Positions 2,602 to 51,665 of a stretch of 64,000 nucleotides of DNA are shown one piece after another. Each line of letters begins with the position of its first letter. Within the stretch, counting starts at the first letter, position 1. Under the pieces are notes generated by a model. That model saw only the letters and a program-made list of their open reading frames with translations, had not been told where the DNA came from and ran no database searches. The stretch is from NCBI GenBank assembly GCA_016212855.1, contig JACRDP010000010.1:174622-238621 (forward strand). The letters are read 5' to 3'. Origin of the DNA: Elusimicrobiota bacterium. Lineage in GTDB: Bacteria > Elusimicrobiota > Elusimicrobia > UBA1565 > UBA9628. A program made the translations under genes and the position numbers.

Positions 2602-3440
2602 GGCGTGGTCTCCGCAAAACCGTCATAAAAAGCGGGGTCGCCGCTGAGGCCGGCCGCAGCGGAGCCGGAGAGGCTGACGCGAATCGACAATCGTTCCGGA
2701 TACACCGTCGTGCCGCAGCGCTCCTTTTCTTTCGCTAGGCCGACGACGGACCCGGCGACTCGCCCCATCTCGTGGAAAGTCGAGCCGAGCGAGGCGGTGG
2801 CGCCTTCGGCGACCAGATTGGCGAAAGGCGCATAAAGAGGGATCTTCTTCGTCCGGGCGGCCTGCTTGAGCATCGCGAACGTCGACTCGCTGATGAGCAG
2901 GGGATCCGGCGGCAGCAGGATCGCGGCCGACTCAAAGTCCGCGGCCCGCAGGCGATCGGGAAGTCCCTCCGCCTTTTCCATCCGGTCTGTTTCGACGGCG
3001 ATGCCGGAGGCGAGACCTGCCTTGACGAAGCTCTTCAGGTAAGGGCCGAGGGCGGGGGAAACCCAAGGAACCCAGATGCGCTTTAATCCCGGTTGGAGCC
3101 GGCGCATCGCTGCGACCATCCTCGCGGGCGCGGGCATCGCCGAGACTACGACGGTACAAACGGCTTCATGACCGCTCAGCATGTATCCGGGGGCCATGGC
3201 CACGATGAGCGTGCTCGCATTTTTGTATTTGATCTGAGCCGCCTTCGCGCCGAAGGCGACGACGGTCTCGGCGGCGGCGTCATTGTCAAGCCCGGCGAGC
3301 GCGGGAGGCGCGTCTGGCCCCAGCGCTTCGCGCAGGCCCTCGAGGGCCTCGCGATACGGCTTGGACTGCGAGCTGAGCACGGCCGCGGTCTCGGCGGAGG
3401 CCGGAACGGCGAGCAAGGCGGCGAAGACGACCGTCCTCAT
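2598..3440 (-). CDS. Periplasmic substrate-binding-like protein (resembles the ABC_sub_bind/PF04392-type proteins that accompany sensor kinases)
   Basis: 280-aa ORF with signal peptide MRTVVFAALLAVPASA. ATGA overlap with the kinase start. The family call is from overall pattern only and was not searched. Confidence 0.55.
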   Translation of the reverse strand: MRTVVFAALLAVPASAETAAVLSSQSKPYREALEGLREALGPDAPPALAGLDNDAAAETVVAFGAKAAQIKYKNASTLIVAMAPGYMLSGHEAVCTVVVSAMPAPARMVAAMRRLQPGLKRIWVPWVSPALGPYLKSFVKAGLASGIAVETDRMEKAEGLPDRLRAADFESAAILLPPDPLLISESTFAMLKQAARTKKIPLYAPFANLVAEGATASLGSTFHEMGRVAGSVVGLAKEKERCGTTVYPERLSIRVSLSGSAAAGLSGDPAFYDGFAETTP

Positions 3441-3814: not shown

Positions 3815-5379
3815 CCGGCCTCCTTTACACGCGGCAGGAGAAGCGCGAAGGTGGCGCCTTCCCCCGGCCGGGAGACCGCCTCGAGCGCGCCGCCGTGCGC
3901 CGCGGCGATGCCGGCGCACACCGACAAGCCCAGCCCCGCTCCTTGGCCGGGGGCCTTGGTCGTAAAAAACGGCTTGAACAGCTTCTTGCGCAACGCCTCG
4001 TCAAAACCTTGGCCGTTGTCGGAAACCTCGACGCGGACCATGTCGCCGTCGGGTCTGATGCGCAAGGTGAGCTTCGGCGCGCGGGCCGAGGCCATCGCCT
4101 GCAGGGCGTTGCGCACGAAGTTGATGAGGACTTGCTTGATCTGCAGCGCATCGGCCAGCACGTCGGGCGTATCCGTGAATTCGCGCGCGATCGCGATGCC
4201 GTCGGCGATGTCCCAGCGAATCAGGCGCAACGCGGACTCGACCAAGGCCACGACCGGCTCGGGCTTGAGGATCGGGGGGGTGCCGCGCCCGAAGGTCAGA
4301 AGGTCCTCGACGATGCGCCGGCAGCGCTCCGTCTGCTCCAGGATGCAGGCGACGTCGTCGGCCTGCTCGGGCGTGAGGTTCGAGGTCTCCAGCATCTGGG
4401 CGGAGCCGAGGATGCCGGTCAACGGGTTGTTGATCTCGTGCGCCACGCTCGCCGCGACGCGGCCGAGGGCGTTGATCCGCTCTGACTCCTTCAAATGAGC
4501 CTGGCTGAGGGACAGTTGACGCATCAAGCGCGCGTTGACGACCGCCTGCACGGCGTGGATGGCGAAAAGGGAGAGGGTTCTCGCCTCGCTCTCGTCGAAG
4601 GGCAGCGGCGAGGCCGTGCGGTTGGCGCAGAGCACGCCGAAGACCGCGCCGGAGGAGACCAGCGGCTGGATGAGGGAGGAACGCACGCCGCGAAGGCCGG
4701 GCACGTCCTTAAAGCGCTCGTCATCGGCCAACGGCCCCAGGATCAGGTAGGACTCGCCGCTGGCCGCGGCCCGGCCGGCCACGCGCTCGCCCAGGGCGAT
4801 GCGCGCGCGACGCGGCTCCTCCCCGTCGAGCCCCGTGCAGGCGGCGACCGTCAGCGCGTCGTCCTCCAAAATCAACAAGGAGGCGTCATCGGCCTGGACC
4901 AGGCGCGCGCCGATCTCCACGATGCGCGTGAGGATCTCGTCGAGTTCGATGCTTTTGTGGATCGCTTGGGCGGCGACGTAGATGGACAAGGTGCTCTTGA
5001 GGTCCTTGCGCTCGAGAGCCTTGTCCGCGGTGCGCATCAGCACGTCGATCTCGAAGGGCTTGAGCACGAAGTCGTAGGCGCCCAGGCGCATGGCCGCCAC
5101 GGCGGTCTCCACCGTTCCGTCGCCGGTCATGAGCACGACCTCGGTCTGCGGCGAGCGCAGCTTGACGATTTCAAGCAGGCTCAAGCCGTCCATGCCGGGC
5201 ATGCGGACATCGCTGAGCATCAGGTGGAAATTCTGCCGGCCGAGCAGTTCCAGCGCCTTCGCCCCGCTCTCCGTCGTGACGACCTCCCAGCCGCGCGCTT
5301 TCAGCTCGAAGTCGAGCATTTCACGCACGCCGGGCTCGTCGTCGACGACAAGCACGCTCGTGCGGGGCGGGTCGGTCAT
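3811..5379 (-). CDS. Cytoplasmic hybrid histidine kinase: receiver + GAF-like + HisKA + HATPase_c
   Basis: 522 aa. N-terminal receiver (VLVVDDEPG, LMLSDVRMPGMDG, LKPF), central GAF-like region, H-box AASVAHEINNPLTG, G boxes DNGQGF and GQGAGLGLSV. No TM segment. Confidence 0.9.
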   Translation of the reverse strand: MTDPPRTSVLVVDDEPGVREMLDFELKARGWEVVTTESGAKALELLGRQNFHLMLSDVRMPGMDGLSLLEIVKLRSPQTEVVLMTGDGTVETAVAAMRLGAYDFVLKPFEIDVLMRTADKALERKDLKSTLSIYVAAQAIHKSIELDEILTRIVEIGARLVQADDASLLILEDDALTVAACTGLDGEEPRRARIALGERVAGRAAASGESYLILGPLADDERFKDVPGLRGVRSSLIQPLVSSGAVFGVLCANRTASPLPFDESEARTLSLFAIHAVQAVVNARLMRQLSLSQAHLKESERINALGRVAASVAHEINNPLTGILGSAQMLETSNLTPEQADDVACILEQTERCRRIVEDLLTFGRGTPPILKPEPVVALVESALRLIRWDIADGIAIAREFTDTPDVLADALQIKQVLINFVRNALQAMASARAPKLTLRIRPDGDMVRVEVSDNGQGFDEALRKKLFKPFFTTKAPGQGAGLGLSVCAGIAAAHGGALEAVSRPGEGATFALLLPRVKEAG

Positions 5380-5738
5380 GGCAGAGGCTCCAGCGCGAAC
5401 GCGATCACTTCATCAAAGCGCGCGGGCTTGGGCAGGCAGGCGAGGGCGCCCGCGGCCAGGGCGGCGGCGGCGATATCCTCGTTCATCACGCTGTAGACGA
5501 GAATTTTCTGGCCGGGACGGGCCGCGATCATACGGCGCACGAGCTCCGGGCCCGTAGCGTCGCCCAGGAATCCGTCGACCAGCACCAAGTCGTAGCCTCG
5601 TTCGCAGACCATGCGAAGGGCCGCGGCGGCGGTGCCGGCCTCGGCGACCAGCCACCCGCGTTCGGACAACGCGAAGCGCGCCAGGTCAAGATAGCTCGGC
5701 TCGTCATCGACGACCAGTATGCGCGAAATGGCCGTCAC
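5376..5738 (-). CDS. Single-domain response regulator (receiver only)
   Basis: 120 aa. ILVVDDEP, LVLVDGFLGDATG, LVYSV, LPKP. 4-nt overlaps on both sides. Confidence 0.85.
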   Translation of the reverse strand: MTAISRILVVDDEPSYLDLARFALSERGWLVAEAGTAAAALRMVCERGYDLVLVDGFLGDATGPELVRRMIAARPGQKILVYSVMNEDIAAAALAAGALACLPKPARFDEVIAFALEPLP

Positions 5739-6488: not shown

Positions 6489-8364
6489 GGGAGATCTCCT
6501 CCATTTTCGCCAGACGGCTGCGCACGGCGCTCAGCATCTCTTCGACGCCCGCCTTGCCTTTCTGCATGACGAGTTCGGCGCGGGTCTCGAGCGCCGCTTG
6601 TTCGGCGCGCGTGAGCGTGCGTCCGGTCAGAACGATGACCGGCACCCGGCTCAGCGCGGGCTCGGCCGCCATGGCCTCGAGAATCTTGGCGCCGTCCATG
6701 TCGGGCATGCCCAGGTCCACGAAGGCGAGGTCCGGCGGCTCGGCGCGCATGGACGCGAGCGCGCGCCGGCCGCTGCCGGAGCAGGTGACGCGATAGCCTT
6801 CGGACGTCAGGGCGATCTTCATGAATTCGGCCACGTCCGGGTCGTCGTCGGCGACGTGTATGCGACGGCCCTTGGGGGCGTCGAGCGCGTTGAGCCGGGC
6901 GATGAGGAGCGTGTAGTCCACGGGCTTGACCAGCCAATCGCTCACGCCCAGGGAATAGCCCAGCTCCCGGTTCTCGCCCGAGGTCACCACCAGGACGGGA
7001 ATGGCGGCGGTCTCGGGGTTTGATTTGAGAGACTGAAGAATCGTCCAACCGTCGAGGCGCGGCATCATGATGTCGAGAGTGATCGCGTAAGGCTTGAGAT
7101 TCTTGGCCAGGGCCAGGCCTTCCTCGCCTGATTGGGCCGTCGCCGTCGCGTAGCCTCCGGCCTCCAAGCCGTCGCGCAAGAGAGCCAAGGTGGTCTGGTC
7201 GTCTTCGATGATCAGCACGAGCTTGCTTCCGGCGTTCTGCGCGTGGGAGCGCCCCGCGGGGATGACGATCTGCGCCTGCTCGACGAGCACGTCCGCGCGG
7301 AAGGTCGTTCCGCGTCCCAGGACGCTCTCCACGCTTACGCCGCCGCCCATCAGCTCCGCTATTTTCTTGACGATGGAAAGCCCCAGCCCCGTGCCGCCGT
7401 GACGGCGAACGAGCGTGCCTTCAAGCTGGCGGAATTGTTCGAACAACTTGCCCTGATCCTCCGGGGAAATGCCCGCTCCGGTGTCGGCGACGCTCAACGT
7501 GAGACGGCGTTTGTCCGGCGTGACGACGGCGCAGATATCGATAGAACCCTTCTCGGTGAACTTCACGGCGTTGCCGGCGAGATTGATGAGTATCTGCCGC
7601 AGTTTGCTCTTGTCGGACCGCACGCGCAGTCCTGCGGCAGCCTGCGTACGCAAGGAGAGTCCCTTTTCCTCGGCCAGGACGGAGAGGGTTTGGCGAACTT
7701 CCTCGAGCAGCTCCGTGAGCTCAAAATCCTCCGGATGCACGGGCATCATTCCCGCGTTGAGCTTGGAGAGATCGAGCACGTCGTTGATCAAGGTCAGCAG
7801 CGCCCGGGCGCTGGCCGTGACGCGGCCCAGGGCCTGCGCCTGCGCCGCCGGGGCGGGGCCGTAAACGCCGTCGATGACGAGCTCGGTGTAGCCGATGATC
7901 GAATTGAGCGGCGTGCGCAGTTCATGGCTCATGCTCGCCAGGAACTCGCTTTTGACGCGGTCAGTTTCCTGCAGATCCGTCACGCGGCCTTTGAGCCGCG
8001 CGCGCTCGAGCGCGCGATCGAGCGTCACCGCCAAGCGCTCGATCTCGTAGGGCTTGGTGACATAATCGTAAGCGCCGCAGCGCATCGATTCGATGGCCGT
8101 CTCCAGGGTGGCGCAGCCCGTGGCCATGATCACCTCGGCGTGGGGCATGCGCTCCTTGATGCGCTTGAGCGTTTCCACCCCGCCGATGCCCGGCATCATG
8201 ATGTCGCACAGCACGACTTCGAAGCGGTCGAGGGCGGTCTTCTCGAGGGCCTCCTCGCCGCTGCCGGCGCCCGCGACCTCCCAGCGCTGCGACAGCTCGA
8301 AAGTGAGCATATCTCTCAGTCCGGCCTCGTCATCGACGATCAGAATCTTGGGCTTGGCGTCCAT
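6481..8364 (-). CDS. Cytoplasmic hybrid histidine kinase: receiver + HisKA + HATPase_c + receiver + receiver
   Basis: 627 aa. REC1 (ILIVDDEAG, VLCDIMMPGIGG, TKPY), H-box FLASMSHELRTPLNSIIGY, G boxes DTGAGIS and GGTGLGLSIV, REC2 (LIIEDDQ, ITLDIMMPRLDG, LVKP), REC3 (HVADDDPD, AFVDLGMPDMDG). Confidence 0.9.
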   Translation of the reverse strand: MDAKPKILIVDDEAGLRDMLTFELSQRWEVAGAGSGEEALEKTALDRFEVVLCDIMMPGIGGVETLKRIKERMPHAEVIMATGCATLETAIESMRCGAYDYVTKPYEIERLAVTLDRALERARLKGRVTDLQETDRVKSEFLASMSHELRTPLNSIIGYTELVIDGVYGPAPAAQAQALGRVTASARALLTLINDVLDLSKLNAGMMPVHPEDFELTELLEEVRQTLSVLAEEKGLSLRTQAAAGLRVRSDKSKLRQILINLAGNAVKFTEKGSIDICAVVTPDKRRLTLSVADTGAGISPEDQGKLFEQFRQLEGTLVRRHGGTGLGLSIVKKIAELMGGGVSVESVLGRGTTFRADVLVEQAQIVIPAGRSHAQNAGSKLVLIIEDDQTTLALLRDGLEAGGYATATAQSGEEGLALAKNLKPYAITLDIMMPRLDGWTILQSLKSNPETAAIPVLVVTSGENRELGYSLGVSDWLVKPVDYTLLIARLNALDAPKGRRIHVADDDPDVAEFMKIALTSEGYRVTCSGSGRRALASMRAEPPDLAFVDLGMPDMDGAKILEAMAAEPALSRVPVIVLTGRTLTRAEQAALETRAELVMQKGKAGVEEMLSAVRSRLAKMEEISHV

Positions 8365-10714: not shown

Positions 10715-11824
10715 ATGATCATCGGAGTGCCCAAGGAAATCAAGAACCGCGAGCACCGCGTCGGCCTCGTGCCGGGCGGCGCGCGCGCCCTCGTCAAGGA
10801 CGGCCACAAGGTCCTCATCGAGAAGGGCGCCGGCCTCGGCTCGGGCATCACCGACGACGAGTACAAGGCCGCGGGAGCGGCGATCGTCGACAAGAAGCGA
10901 CTGTTCGCCGACGCGGAGATGATCATCAAGGTCAAGGAGCCGCTCGAGGAGGAGTATTCGCTGTTCCGCGCGGACCAGATTCTCTACACCTACCTGCACC
11001 TCGCTCCGGCACCGGCGCTCACGAAGGCTCTGCTCAAAGCGAAGATCAAGGGCGTGGCCTACGAGACGATTCAGACCAAGGACGGCGCACTCCCGTTGCT
11101 GACCCCGATGAGCGAAGTCGCCGGCAAGATGGCGGTCCAACTCGGGGCCCAGTTCCTCGAGAAGCACCACGGCGGACGCGGCGTGCTCCTCGGCGGCGTG
11201 CCGGGCGTGGCCCGCGGCGTGGTCACCATCATCGGCGGCGGCGTGGTCGGCATCAACGCGGCCAAGATCGCCATCGGCATGGGCGCGCGCGTGAACATAC
11301 TCGACGTCTCCGCCTCGCGCCTGGCCTACCTCGACGACGTGTTCGGAAACTCGGTCAGCACCTTGATGAGCCACGACGAGAACATCATGAACTCCGTGCA
11401 CCGCTCCGACCTGCTCATCGGCGCCGTGCTGATTCCCGGCGCCAAGGCGCCGTCGCTCGTCACCGAGGATATGGTGAAGAAGATGAAGCCCGGCTCCGTC
11501 ATCGTCGACGTCGCCGTGGACCAGGGCGGCTGCATCGAGACGTGCGAGGTGACGAGCCACGACAAGCCGATCGTCGTCAAGCACGGCGTCCTGCACTACG
11601 CGGTGCCCAACATCCCCGGCGCGGTCAGCCACACCTCGACGTACGCGCTGACGAACGTCACGCTCAAGTACGCGCGCGACATCGCCCGCCACGGCCTGGA
11701 AGAGGCGGTCCGTCGGGACGAGGCCCTGCGCAAGGGCGTCAACGTCTATCGCGGCAAGGTCACCCACGCGGCCGTCGCCCACTCCGTCGGGGAGAAGCCC
11801 GTCGAGCTTGCGACCCTCGTTTAA
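10715..11824 (+). CDS. ald: Alanine dehydrogenase
   Basis: 369 aa. [22 protein letters not shown]..., Rossmann motif [26 protein letters not shown] 7 nt upstream. Confidence 0.9.
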
Positions 11825-13364
11825 GCCCGCGGTTCTGGCCGCTCTGCTGCTGCTCGCGCCCGCCGGCGCGAGCGCGCAGCGCGGACGTTCGTACGACCCC
11901 GAGGTCGCCTTGCTCGTGCTCACGATCCAGAAGGCGAGCGTTCAGCTTCTGCGCGAGGAGCTCGTGCGCCAGGCCGAGTGGCTGGAGCTCGGCGGCATGC
12001 AGGTCCTGCTCGCCGAGAAGGTCGGCGGTTTCGCGAAGAACGTCACCAAGGGCCTCACCGCCGACTCGGACATCCTCGAGGATTACCGCCAGCAGATTCT
12101 CAAGGTCGACCCGACCGCGATCGGCGAGGTGGACAAGCTCATCAACGAGATCCGCCGCTACCACGACCTGGTCCCCGGCCCGCCGATGGTGCGCCTGCCC
12201 TGGCCGCCGCCGCCCGGACCCCAACTCGAGTTCCTGGAGGAGGACGGCATCGGCGCGGACGCCGCCTCCGCCCTCAAGGGCACGCCGGCCATGGACGAGC
12301 CCGTGGCCTACGCCGAGCGGCGCTTCGGCACGACCGGGCCCTTCCTGCGCCATAGAATGTGGAACCTCGACTTCTACCTCGGTTCGTTCAGCGACCTGCT
12401 CCTCCATTATAAAAAGCTCGGCTACCGCCGCATCTACCGGCTGCGCTCGCCGTACGTCAGCTACGGCAAGGAAGCCTACGTGCTCTCCCCCGAGCCGGGG
12501 CTTCGCCCGCGCGTGGTCTACTGCGGTTTTTACGGCCAGGATCTCTTTCTCCATACGCGCGCCCAGTGGGCGATCCTCACCGAGCGCGGGAAAGGAGAGA
12601 GCACGACGGTGCGCACCTTGACCTGCCCCTCCTGTACCTGGGTCCTGCCGGGCGTGCGCGCGATGAGGTCTTTGCTCGCCACCGTGCCCTACTCCGCCGA
12701 CACCGTCGTCGTGGGCTACGACTACCTCTTCGAGCCCGAGTGGAAGGACCAGGCGCTCGGCGTCTACGAGAACGACTATTGGCGCCTGTCCTATTTTAAA
12801 ACCGGCCCGACCATCAGCGCGACGGTCGTGCCGCGCCGCACCAATTTCGGCGAGATTCTGGCGGCCTCGCTGACCCCGTTGGTCCGACGCGGCGCCAAGC
12901 GCGTGTACTACGCCGGACCCGCGGCGCGCGTCGACGAGGGCGCCGCCGGCGACGAGCTCCAGATCCCGACGGATTTCGCGGCCTTCACCGGCAGCGTCGT
13001 CGCCTTCGAAAACGCGCTCCTGCCGCGCAAGCCCAAGAAGCGCCTCTTCGCCGCCCTGCCTTCGCCCCTGCTCGCCACGCGCGAGTGGCTCAAGGACGCG
13101 GCCGGCCACGACATCGTCGCCTTCGACGGCGAGATGGCCCGCCTCGCCGAGGAAGCCGCCGCCTGGGGCCGCATCCGCGACCACCGCGTGGAGTGCGGCA
13201 TCGGCGCGGTGCTCGCGGGCCTGGCCAACCTCCACCCCGAGGAGGACCGCGCGGTGTACACGATCAGCTACGAGAGCCAGGCCGGCAAAGAGTCGGCGAA
13301 GCGCCGCTATCGCGACCTGGTGCTCGGCAAGATCAAGACCGCCGGCAAAGCCGCCGAAGAATAG
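11808..13364 (+). CDS. Hypothetical secreted protein (no recognisable family)
   Basis: 518 aa. TTG start gives the signal peptide (M)[22 protein letters not shown]|Q. Realistic composition (Tyr/Phe/Lys/Trp) versus the Arg/Gly-rich competing frames. Overlaps the ald end by 17 nt. Confidence 0.65.
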
Positions 13365-13378
13365 CGCCGGATATAGGC

Positions 13379-13508
13379 CGGGCGGAGAGATCGCCCCTCG
13401 CCGGGGACGGTCGGGATTGACCCTCCCTGCGCTGCCTGTCCGCGACGCATGAGAACGCCCTTGTCGCGGCAGGCAGAGCCCGCCGGCGAGGGTCGATCTC
13501 TCCGCCCG
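13379..13508. repeat. Long imperfect hairpin element A (~130 nt)
   Basis: Outer arms 13379-13404 / 13483-13508 pair 25 of 26. Inner arms 13432-13446 / 13463-13476 (CTGCCTGtCCGCGAC / GTCGCGGCAGGCAG) enclose a 16-nt loop. The large unpaired bulge is on the 5' side. Confidence 0.7.
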
Positions 13509-13623
13509 ATGATATTTCCCGCGGGCTTTTTCGACGACATCGAACGGCTTTATCGCCTGCGGCGATGGGCTTGTGCGTGAGAAAGAAGACGGCGAGGAAC
13601 CGTGCGGGCCGATTCCTTGATAA

Positions 13624-13755
13624 GGCCCGGGGAGACCGTCTAGTCCTCCGGGGCGTCGGTCAAGCCGCGACTAGAGAGCCGTCGCACGTCGCGGACTGAC
13701 CGCCGAGCGAGGTCGATCCGAGCGTCCCCGGAGGGCTAGACGGTCTCCCCGGGCC
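13624..13755. repeat. Long imperfect hairpin element B (~130 nt), same architecture as A but inverted
   Basis: Outer arms 13624-13653 / 13726-13755 pair 29 of 30. Inner arms 13657-13671 / 13688-13702 (CGGTCAAGCCGCGAC / GTCGCGGACTGACCG) enclose a 16-nt loop. The large bulge is on the 3' side. Confidence 0.7.
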
Positions 13756-13792
13756 GTCTCAAGACCTTCGCCGTTCTCAGCTCATCGCCGTT

Positions 13793-14611
13793 TTATTTCG
13801 GAGCGAGGTGGAAGTCGGTCACGAGGGGCGTTTCGGAATTGGGCTCGAGGGAAGCGGGCTCGGAGATCGTCGTCGCGAGTTCCGCGACGAGCTCCTTGCG
13901 GCGCTCGAGCGGCATCTCGGAGACTCCCTCCGTTCCCGGGTTGAGGTAGGTCTTCGCGTAGCCGGCCTTGGAGATCGCCACGAGGTAGCCGTGACCGCGC
14001 AGCGGCGGAAGGATGGTCCGGTACAGGCCCGCGGAATCGCTCACGAGAAACGCCTGCGAGTTCGTCTCGTTGTCCGTGAAGATCAGCTTGGCGCCGGCCA
14101 CCGGCCTGAGGGTGACGAGGTCGTAGACGTGGCCGCGCATCTTCCACTCGCGCACGATCTTCTCTTTCGCGGCGGCCTCGGGCATGATCGAGACGACGCC
14201 GCCGCCCTCCTCGTCGGGATTGACCTTGCGCACGTACTTCACGCGTCCCTTCGGGTCGTAGACGCCGGTGACCTGCTCGTTGACGATGCCCTGGATGGCT
14301 TCGCTGTTGACGGGAACGACGCCGCCGCCCGTGGGGGCCAACGAGACGGAGCGCGCCGCCTTCTGCACCGTGGTGACCGCGCCGCGCGTGGTCTGCTCGG
14401 TGGTCGACCAGAAGAACGAGGCCATCGCCCAAATTCCGTAGCCGAGACCGCCGAAGAGGAGGATCGGCATGATGATGTTGCGGAAGGTGTCGCTCTGGAA
14501 CGCGGTCTTCTCCGGCGGCGCGTCACGGAAGGACAACGGGCAGTTGGGACAGCTCTCCCAATCCGGCAGGAGCTTCGTCCCGCAGCCCGGGCATTTCGCG
14601 GGAGCGGACAT
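13793..14611 (-). CDS. Membrane protein: N-terminal zinc-ribbon (CPGC..CPNC), one TM, extracytoplasmic carboxypeptidase-regulatory-like beta-sandwich
   Basis: 272 aa. CPGCGTKLLPDWESCPNC, TM IIMPILLFGGLGYGIWAMASFFW, then GHVYDLVTLRPVAGAKLIFTDNETN..SDSAGLYR..GYLVAISKAGY. Start lies 3 nt after the serA stop. Confidence 0.7.
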   Translation of the reverse strand: MSAPAKCPGCGTKLLPDWESCPNCPLSFRDAPPEKTAFQSDTFRNIIMPILLFGGLGYGIWAMASFFWSTTEQTTRGAVTTVQKAARSVSLAPTGGGVVPVNSEAIQGIVNEQVTGVYDPKGRVKYVRKVNPDEEGGGVVSIMPEAAAKEKIVREWKMRGHVYDLVTLRPVAGAKLIFTDNETNSQAFLVSDSAGLYRTILPPLRGHGYLVAISKAGYAKTYLNPGTEGVSEMPLERRKELVAELATTISEPASLEPNSETPLVTDFHLAPK

Positions 14612-51484: not shown

Positions 51485-51556
51485 GGCGCCGTAGCTCAGT
51501 GGTAGAGCGGGCGTTTCATAAGCGCCATGTCGGAAGTTCGATCCTTCCCGGCGCCA
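51485..51556 (+). tRNA. tRNA with CAT anticodon (elongator Met, or Ile2 if lysidine-modified)
   Basis: Hand-folded. Acceptor GGCGCCG/CGGCGCC, D arm GCTC-AGTGGTA-GAGC, anticodon loop TTCATAA, T arm GGAAG-TTCGATC-CTTCC. The G1-C72 pair and the absence of a 3x G-C run in the anticodon stem argue against an initiator. Confidence 0.8.
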
Positions 51557-51578
51557 AGATTTGGAAGATGGTGAAGAC

Positions 51579-51610
51579 GCCCGGACATTGATCTAGGTCA
51601 ATGTCCGGGC
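51579..51610 (+). terminator. 13-bp perfect hairpin after tRNA-Met (terminator-like)
   Basis: GCCCGGACATTGA-tctagg-TCAATGTCCGGGC followed by tcgtcctatctgttt (weak T tract). Confidence 0.45.
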
Positions 51611-51665
51611 TCGTCCTATCTGTTTAAATCCGTTTGCTTCTTATAGAGAACTAAAGGAGATTACA

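Follow-up and report, generated by a model that had tools for sequence, protein, structure and literature searches.

The stretch of Elusimicrobiota bacterium DNA analyzed here (64,000 nucleotides of contig JACRDP010000010.1, hereafter the window) contains two convergent genes whose stop codons, at position 13364 on the plus strand and 13793 on the minus strand, are separated by a gap of 428 nt. Two long hairpins, modules A and B, occupy this gap. An earlier reading of the sequence (the original prediction) described them as two diverged copies of one structure-preserving element, arranged head to head. Our data show that A and B are the two inverted arms of one ~400-nt composite unit, rather than separate insertions, and that this unit belongs to a repeat family with copies at many loci.

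A repeat finder recovered the outer arms of module A (26 nt, 96% complementary) and module B (38 nt, 92% complementary) at the coordinates given in Table 1, together with the inner arms; the 30-nt arms first proposed for B, at 13624-13755, fall inside the 38-nt arms. For the tip sequence common to both modules, CCGCGAC-N16-GTCGCGG, chance predicts 0.09 matches in the window, and exactly two are present. Both strands of A and B fold as RNA at -98 to -107 kcal/mol (z -8.3 to -10.0), with none of 200 shuffled sequences folding as stably, and folding with DNA parameters gave z scores of -8.0 and -8.3. Read on the plus strand, A aligns full-length with the reverse complement of B over ~140 nt, and the alignment takes in the unpaired bulge GGGGACG.TCGG.AT.GACC and an unpaired GT before the tip stem, confirming that one module mirrors the other and that the bulge sequence is common to both. 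When the whole window copy was folded, each module folded locally and not with the other. The 64 kb hold no other long inverted repeat of comparable size. Two moderate inverted repeats, unrelated in sequence, lie elsewhere in the window, at 56845-56869/57010-57034 (25 nt at 80%) and 20228-20249/20284-20305 (22 nt at 82%).

To find further copies, we scanned one genome per prokaryotic species with a pattern for the conserved core, GGGGACG-N20-40-GTCCGCGAC-N12-20-GTCGCGGC. The scan returned 76 loci, 26 of which are full-length homologs, all from nine species of Elusimicrobiota represented by metagenome-assembled genomes (MAGs); the other 50 are scattered in coding DNA of actinomycetes and other high-GC taxa and look like chance matches. 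A covariance model built from an alignment of 30 copies identified 45 modules in the Elusimicrobiota genome loci and 33 further modules in 26 contigs from groundwater and soil metagenomes that were retrieved with a second pattern. With this model, module A scores 138 bits on the plus strand against 29 on the minus strand, and module B 103 bits on the minus strand against 37.5 on the plus strand. A search with filters off revealed no third copy in the window. A weak, chance-level match fell in the region 51485-51640; there, a stretch of lower GC content downstream of tRNA-Met (51485-51556) contains a 12-bp hairpin (CCCGGACATTGA/TCAATGTCCGGG, ~51571-51612), probably the terminator of that tRNA. 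Up to five contigs per MAG carry a copy, as in LC012 (L006, L019, L028, L052 and L072).

As far as sampled, the repeat family is confined to a clade of high-GC Elusimicrobiota. BLASTN searches of plasmid and phage collections with the 428-nt unit returned no match, and a pattern scan of viral contigs found none. Against Rfam, the whole window yielded only three tRNAs at the gathering threshold, and at a permissive threshold the interval 13000-14200 gave chance-level hits only (VA, 23.6 bits with a threshold of 62; MIR3454, 22.3 bits with a threshold of 142), and no known RNA family matches the elements. A literature search on Elusimicrobia repeats and palindromes likewise found no description of such an element. 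As far as Rfam, the literature and the plasmid and phage collections show, the family was previously undescribed in Elusimicrobiota.

Two modules never occur together in any other arrangement: at every two-module locus, in genomes and metagenomes alike, the order is plus then minus, with 0-110 nt between the modules. The two subtypes differ in their flanks and base, A having AACGCCGATGnnGGCCGGGG and B having AACGGCTTGAGACGGCCCGGCGG. An alignment of 12 spacers from different loci showed that the spacer, too, is conserved over unrelated sites, with a small hairpin ATCGCC-TGC-GGCGAT followed by GGGCTTCTTTGTGAG and then by AACGGCGAGGAAGC and GGCCGATTCCTTGATAAGG; within the window this spacer motif occurs once. 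Both ends of the unit begin AACG(C/G)C. The unit is without coding capacity, and its copies differ by insertions and deletions in loops and stems. We considered a small open reading frame in the spacer (ATG/ATC AAG GAA TCG...) and rejected it, because its start codon and frame vary between copies.

Pairs lie between convergent genes in the window and at L005, L006, L015, L027, L038, L040, L043, L053 and others, between tandem genes at L019, L036, L063, L052, L072 and L017, and between divergent genes at L028. The explanation that each convergent gene has an element of its own therefore fails, and single modules are deletion remnants of pairs. At a locus next to a uvrC-like 437-aa gene, for example, full pairs are found in L005, L015, L038, L040 and L106, whereas L108 has lost all of B except its base (GATAAGGCCCGGCGG|GCCGTCTCAAG) while keeping A and the spacer, and in L097 B remains, with a decayed spacer and no more of A than its 5' flank. 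The original prediction was right about the opposite orientation of the two hairpins; their constant order and conserved spacer make them one composite unit instead of two copies side by side. We also observed a GGGCCC-N10-GGGCCC palindrome just outside the B end at the orthologous locus of an 839-aa gene in four MAGs (L036 ~2990-3040, L063 ~6815-6850, L072 ~2190-2228 and L017 ~4940-4980).

Table 1. Features of the composite unit and its flanking genes, in window positions.
Feature	Position	Strand	Description
Whole composite element	13365..13792	.	428 nt between TAG (13362-13364, plus-strand gene) and TTA/TAA (13793-13795, minus-strand gene)
Left terminal motif	13365..13378	+	CGCCGGATATAGGC; family consensus (A)ACGCCGATGnnGGCC, from flank comparison of 41 copies
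Module A, long branched hairpin	13379..13508	+	Outer stem 13379-13404/13483-13508
Module A, 5'-side bulge	13405-13428		Small hairpin with conserved ATTGA loop, 13416-13420
Module A, inner stem	~13429-13446/13463-13479		Tip stem CCGCGAC/GTCGCGG; 16-nt loop 13447-13462
Conserved spacer	13509..13615	+	Small hairpin ATCGCC-TGC-GGCGAT 13552-13566, then GGGCTTGTG, then motifs GACGGCGAGGAA and GCCGATTCCTTGATAAGG
Module B, architecture as module A on the minus strand	13616..13763	-	Outer arms 13616-13653/13726-13763
Module B, bulge			ATCGA loop; on 5' side of minus strand
Module B, tip stem	13665-13694		CCGCGAC/GTCGCGG
Right terminal segment	13764..13792	-	Minus-strand reading (AA)AACGGCGATGAGCTGAGAACGGCGAAGG; carries end motif AACGGCGATG
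Upstream flanking gene	11808..13364	+	518-aa conserved hypothetical protein, no Pfam domain, C-terminus intact; identical to NCBI MAG protein HY923_03840
Downstream convergent gene	13793..14611	-	272-aa protein, CarboxypepD_reg-like domain, C-terminus ..DFHLAPK* intact

Inverted-repeat analysis, folding of the whole unit and flank comparison indicate that the right terminal segment is a partial inverted copy of the spacer at 13560-13598. In the window copy, an extra inverted repeat (13560-13598 with 13779-13799) encloses module B, and the right terminal 29 nt repeat the end motif AACGGCGATG; such an enclosing repeat was not seen in the other copies inspected.

Each module is 130-150 nt long and adopts a three-way branched fold composed of a base, an outer helix, a one-sided bulge hairpin, an inner helix and a tip helix. 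The base is conserved as GGCC(G/C)GG.../...CC(G/C)GG, and the outer helix, ~17 bp long, varies in sequence between copies. A conserved segment found on the 5' side only (CCGGGGACG...) holds the small bulge hairpin, which has an almost invariant ATTGA loop and a covarying stem (GGG/CCC, GGC/GCC, GCC/GGC). The tip helix CCGCGAC/GTCGCGG is closed by an A-rich loop of ~15 nt and covaries in copies outside the pattern selection (ACGCAAC/GTTGCGT, CCGCGGC/GCCGCGG). Conservation of the ATTGA loop and of the A-rich tip loop is on one strand only.

The original prediction that the outer arms differ in sequence and stay paired is borne out by extensive covariation. In a MAFFT alignment, which was not fitted to the structure, 91.7% of cells are paired, compared to 78% in shuffled and 40-53% in slid alignments, and both sides have changed in 186 cells compared to 54 in shuffles. 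In the model-fitted alignment 93.9% of cells are paired (40-52% when slid), with both-side changes in 39 of 47 pairs, and covariation was found in all four helices. Since the outer helices of A and B differ within one unit, the covariation supports pairing inside each module. The 45 and 33 modules found, together with these compensatory changes, support the claim of diverged copies that preserve one structure.

The outer helix is paired almost exclusively by Watson-Crick pairs: among 1080 outer-stem cells, 1003 are Watson-Crick, 4 are G-T and 17 are A-C; subtype B has a conserved internal loop that accounts for most of the non-Watson-Crick cells. In the inner and small helices there are 29 G-T cells and 1 A-C cell, most of which depend on the alignment register; a TTG/CGAA variant, for example, needs no wobble when a bulged G is drawn instead. 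Because these counts hinge on the register, we dropped an attempt to read the functional strand from G-U versus A-C mismatches. G-U pairs are usually common in RNA helices under selection, and template-switch correction of quasi-palindromes is a known mutational mechanism that copies one arm from the other. The near absence of G-U in the outer helix suggests one of three causes: a constraint acting on the DNA itself, as a hairpin or cruciform, a requirement that both transcripts can fold, or arm-copying mutation. Part of the compensation may come from template-switch correction instead of selection. The asymmetric bulge and the loops have not been "corrected" away, and must therefore be under selection.

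The history of the unit at the window locus is revealed by relatives that lack it. We fetched orthologous loci through homologs of the 518-aa protein with 61-87% amino-acid identity, and obtained eight relatives that keep the neighborhood ald, 518-aa gene, CarboxypepD_reg gene, serA, serC, lon, clpP and tig. In these relatives the convergent stop codons are separated by 1, 7, 9, 9 or 11 nt, or else the two genes share a 32-nt overlap (L084:11523-11554 and L086:11526-11557; the genes 1 nt apart are at L116:2273-2275), versus 428 nt in the window. As the relatives' genes abut or overlap, the 428 nt represent an insertion, and the empty orthologous sites (L079-L086, L113, L114 and L116) support the MITE- or BIME-like reading that was first proposed. 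From these sequence comparisons, the simplest history is that the whole composite was gained once, in the lineage of the window. The covariance model detected no copy in ~75 kb of DNA from the empty-site relatives. Both flanking C-termini in the window are intact, with end residues as in the relatives, and the composite disrupts neither flanking gene. Copy-to-copy similarity stops at about the left terminal motif, as judged from a comparison of the flanks of 41 copies. The 518-aa protein itself has at least 100 homologs, all named ones from Elusimicrobia/Elusimicrobiota, and its gene neighborhood is constant.

Among the 65 informative module ends across the family, 41 are located -3 to +25 nt relative to a co-oriented stop codon; distances were counted from the model start, which is 17 nt before the stem. 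This proximity could reflect targeting or, equally, the survival of harmless insertions only; survival is suggested by the tandem context, where the unit hugs the upstream stop codon and leaves the downstream promoter region free. By Pfam, neighboring genes encode histidine kinases, response regulators, PRTase, squalene-hopene cyclase, Lgt and acetyl-CoA synthetase, and no transposase was found among the neighbors of single and divergent-context copies. Several loci are filled in many species (the 437-aa locus in seven genomes, the lgt locus in five and the 839-aa locus in four), which indicates that these copies are old and mostly vertically inherited.

At orthologous loci, how similar two modules are does not follow from how similar the genes are. 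Modules of the 437-aa locus are 0.54-0.90 identical, and the neighboring gene is 0.59-0.76 identical at its third codon positions. By gene, L005 and L040 rank with the more distant pairs, but their modules are near-identical (0.89 versus 0.61 at third codon positions); L015 and L038 show the reverse. On these sequence comparisons, the mismatch between module and gene similarity suggests that copies convert or replace one another, as happens in other repeat families.

The unit was inserted whole into the 1-12-nt gap between the convergent stop codons, and we consider it likely that A and B represent a new family of non-autonomous, BIME/REPIN/MITE-like mobile composite repeats. Such a composite would be moved in trans by an enzyme, and this enzyme probably reads the folded module as a structure, either a single-stranded DNA hairpin or a cruciform; we propose structure recognition because pairing is almost only Watson-Crick while the asymmetric bulge and the loops stay constant. 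Recognition of single-stranded DNA hairpins is known for REP sequences, which are recognized by RAYT, and for IS200/IS605 ends. Since the unit is symmetrical, after insertion a transcript from either side would meet a sense-oriented hairpin of ~-100 kcal/mol a few nucleotides past the stop codon, which should impede 3' exonucleases and perhaps RNA polymerase. Copies sometimes decay by losing one hairpin through internal deletion. A more specific proposal, which we regard as speculative and rather improbable, is that the units are substrates of a structure-guided enzyme that reads the ATTGA-loop bulge and the tip hairpin of a ~150-nt folded strand, leaves the outer helix free as long as it is Watson-Crick paired, and copies or inserts the unit precisely at gene 3' ends, or else that they are domesticated two-way transcription insulators kept by selection at each locus while species diverged.

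Several observations weigh against a mobile repeat. The directly documented gain events number one. The original prediction proposed looking for target-site duplications, and none is recognizable at the window junctions in the one filled-versus-empty comparison available, with eight empty sites; a CGCC on both sides was rejected as a candidate, as it is not adjacent to the ends. The flanking protein of even the closest empty-site relative has only 87% identity, which leaves room for a very short hidden duplication (2-4 nt), and the missing duplication is compatible with hairpin recognition without proving anything. Among the fetched loci, as distinct from whole genomes, none of ~70 has a gene flanked by modules and no autonomous partner was seen, and the copy number found per genome with the strict pattern is low, at up to five loci. 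Finally, many of the copies are old ones at orthologous loci, and module conservation exceeds that of synonymous sites in many pairs; a host function explains such copies no less well than a selfish element does.

These last observations lead to the strongest alternative, that the unit is a host-functional cis element, a 3'-UTR (untranslated region) RNA structure serving as terminator, insulator, stabilizer or protein-binding RNA under selection at each locus, with mobility merely historical. Modules stand sense-oriented directly past stop codons in the 41 of 65 informative cases, all helices covary, the ATTGA and A-rich tip loops are conserved on a single strand, and orthologous copies persist over species, often exceeding third-codon similarity, as in the L005-L040 pair. 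Moreover, where convergent genes overlap or lie 1 nt apart, as in the element-free relatives, there is no room for any terminator. On the other side, the almost complete lack of G-U in ~1000 outer-stem cells would be unusual for a constraint at the RNA level, composites between divergent genes (L028, L007 and L045) serve no gene end, the hairpins undergo deletion, eight relatives do without the element at the window locus, and no Rfam family matches it. We therefore judge a host function as the primary explanation to be possible, though unlikely.

Intrinsic terminators are short GC-rich hairpins with a U-tract directly behind them. A terminator scan found none at A or B, whose hairpins run into the tails CGAUGAUAUUU and CCUUAUCAAGG and not into a U-tract, and in L043 and L053 the unit lies right beside canonical intrinsic terminators (GCGGCCGGTCCCC..GGGGACCGGCCGC then TTCATTTT); both points speak against termination as its primary role. 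A sigma-70 scan inside the unit found no promoter, and TTGACC of the bulge loop with TATAAA of the tip loop was rejected as one promoter, since the two are 25 nt apart, too far. Of the bidirectional terminator or mRNA stabilizer originally suggested, what we retain is a model in which the unit probably acts as a two-way barrier to read-through and 3' exonucleases; the missing U-tract, the units between divergent genes and the adjoining canonical terminators speak against a plain terminator. Around the L053 composite, a terminator-like hairpin (GCGGCCGGTCCCC-loop-GGGGACCGGCCGC then TTCATTT) stands on both sides (5105-5146 and 5489-5528) as a ~40-nt direct repeat with different loops, and in L043, from a different MAG, the same hairpin precedes the composite (~1620-1659). 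These flanking hairpins may represent another family of REP-like repeats or an insertion duplication of unusual length.

It is highly improbable that A and B are simply two independent Rho-independent terminators, one per convergent gene, that are alike by chance. Their position between convergent genes, their stable GC-rich hairpins and the sense orientation of each after its gene would suit this explanation, but the hairpins are branched, 130-150 nt long and without a U-tract, their unpaired sequence is common to A, B and ~75 copies elsewhere, a conserved spacer accompanies the pair even at tandem and divergent genes, and the clade has short canonical terminators elsewhere. The existence of a family with a composite architecture refutes it. 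Just as hard to credit is that the modules are attC-like folded sites used by a site-specific recombination system, integron-like or other. Each is an imperfect palindrome of attC-like length directly past an open reading frame, and its stem is conserved partly in structure rather than sequence, with conserved extrahelical features; against this, the stem base (GGCC(G/C)GG) lacks R/L core boxes (GTTRRRY/RYYYAAC), modules form convergent pairs only and no same-orientation arrays between cassettes, and their neighbors are housekeeping genes in conserved synteny with no integrase nearby.

An assembly artefact, in which the hairpins reflect a chimeric or fold-back join in the MAG, can be dismissed as next to impossible: although unitigs from short reads end within both hairpins (L001 and L002), Logan contigs, a separate assembly, match both gene-module junctions base for base up to the second arm, and dozens of unrelated MAGs and metagenomes, with one complete genome (L025, CP096137.1) among them, show the same architecture. 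The hairpins do fragment short-read assemblies. Of two unitig contigs from the same organism as the window, L001 (end 3931) breaks off within module B and L002 (end 2696) within module A, in each case at the beginning of the second hairpin arm, and a module lies at the contig end in 6 of 26 genome loci (L003, L029, L032, L061, L062 and L073).

As a mobile composite repeat, the unit is closest in architecture to the enterobacterial BIME-1/RIP, without sequence similarity. In BIME-1/RIP, REP subtypes Y and Z lie in inverted orientation around a conserved linker. The two systems have in common a pair of related palindromic subtypes in opposite orientation around a conserved linker, an intergenic and non-coding nature, and many dispersed loci, often at gene 3' ends or between convergent genes. 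They differ in that REPs are 35-40 nt long (about 20-40), compared to branched hairpins of 130-150 nt here, and in that our family has no conserved GTAG-type 5' motif: its 5' flank consensus is AACGCCGATGnnGGCC, with GTAG only in L036, L063 and L017. Its copy number also appears low, and it comes from another phylum.

In size and insertion polymorphism, the unit resembles MITEs such as Correia or ERIC. Correia/NEMIS of Neisseria and ERIC/IRU of enterobacteria are non-coding elements of 100-400 bp with terminal inverted symmetry and insertion polymorphism. They are found near genes, and their co-transcription gives stable RNA hairpins able to influence the fate of the mRNA. Like them, the unit described here is small and non-coding, has terminal inverted repeats (~140 nt), and is present or absent at orthologous sites. 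Unlike them, it shows no recognizable TA or other duplication, and its inverted termini are themselves palindromic, with compensatory evolution by Watson-Crick pairs only. In the fetched loci we saw no autonomous insertion sequence with matching ends, and the plasmid, phage and viral collections gave no match to the unit.

Evolutionary behavior, in turn, appears closest to that of REPINs, non-autonomous inverted-repeat hairpin units, mobilized by RAYT transposases, that have conserved parts and a variable part kept paired by compensatory changes (PMC3116915, Bertels & Rainey 2011). Compensatory stem changes in a hairpin unit and long vertical persistence in a lineage are features of both families (PMC3116915). 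A REPIN is one ~100-nt hairpin formed by two REPs, whereas the unit here is a doublet of ~150-nt hairpins, and our ~70 fetched loci, which are not whole genomes, contained no RAYT or module-flanked gene.

These data add a new repeat family in a little-studied phylum. Its hairpins may be mistaken for RNA genes by annotators, and the covariance model would let pipelines mask them. The combination of a clean filled-versus-empty site with clear covariation could help to separate structural selection from template-switch "correction", and the family may help to ask how compact genomes gain spacers or terminators between abutting or overlapping convergent genes.

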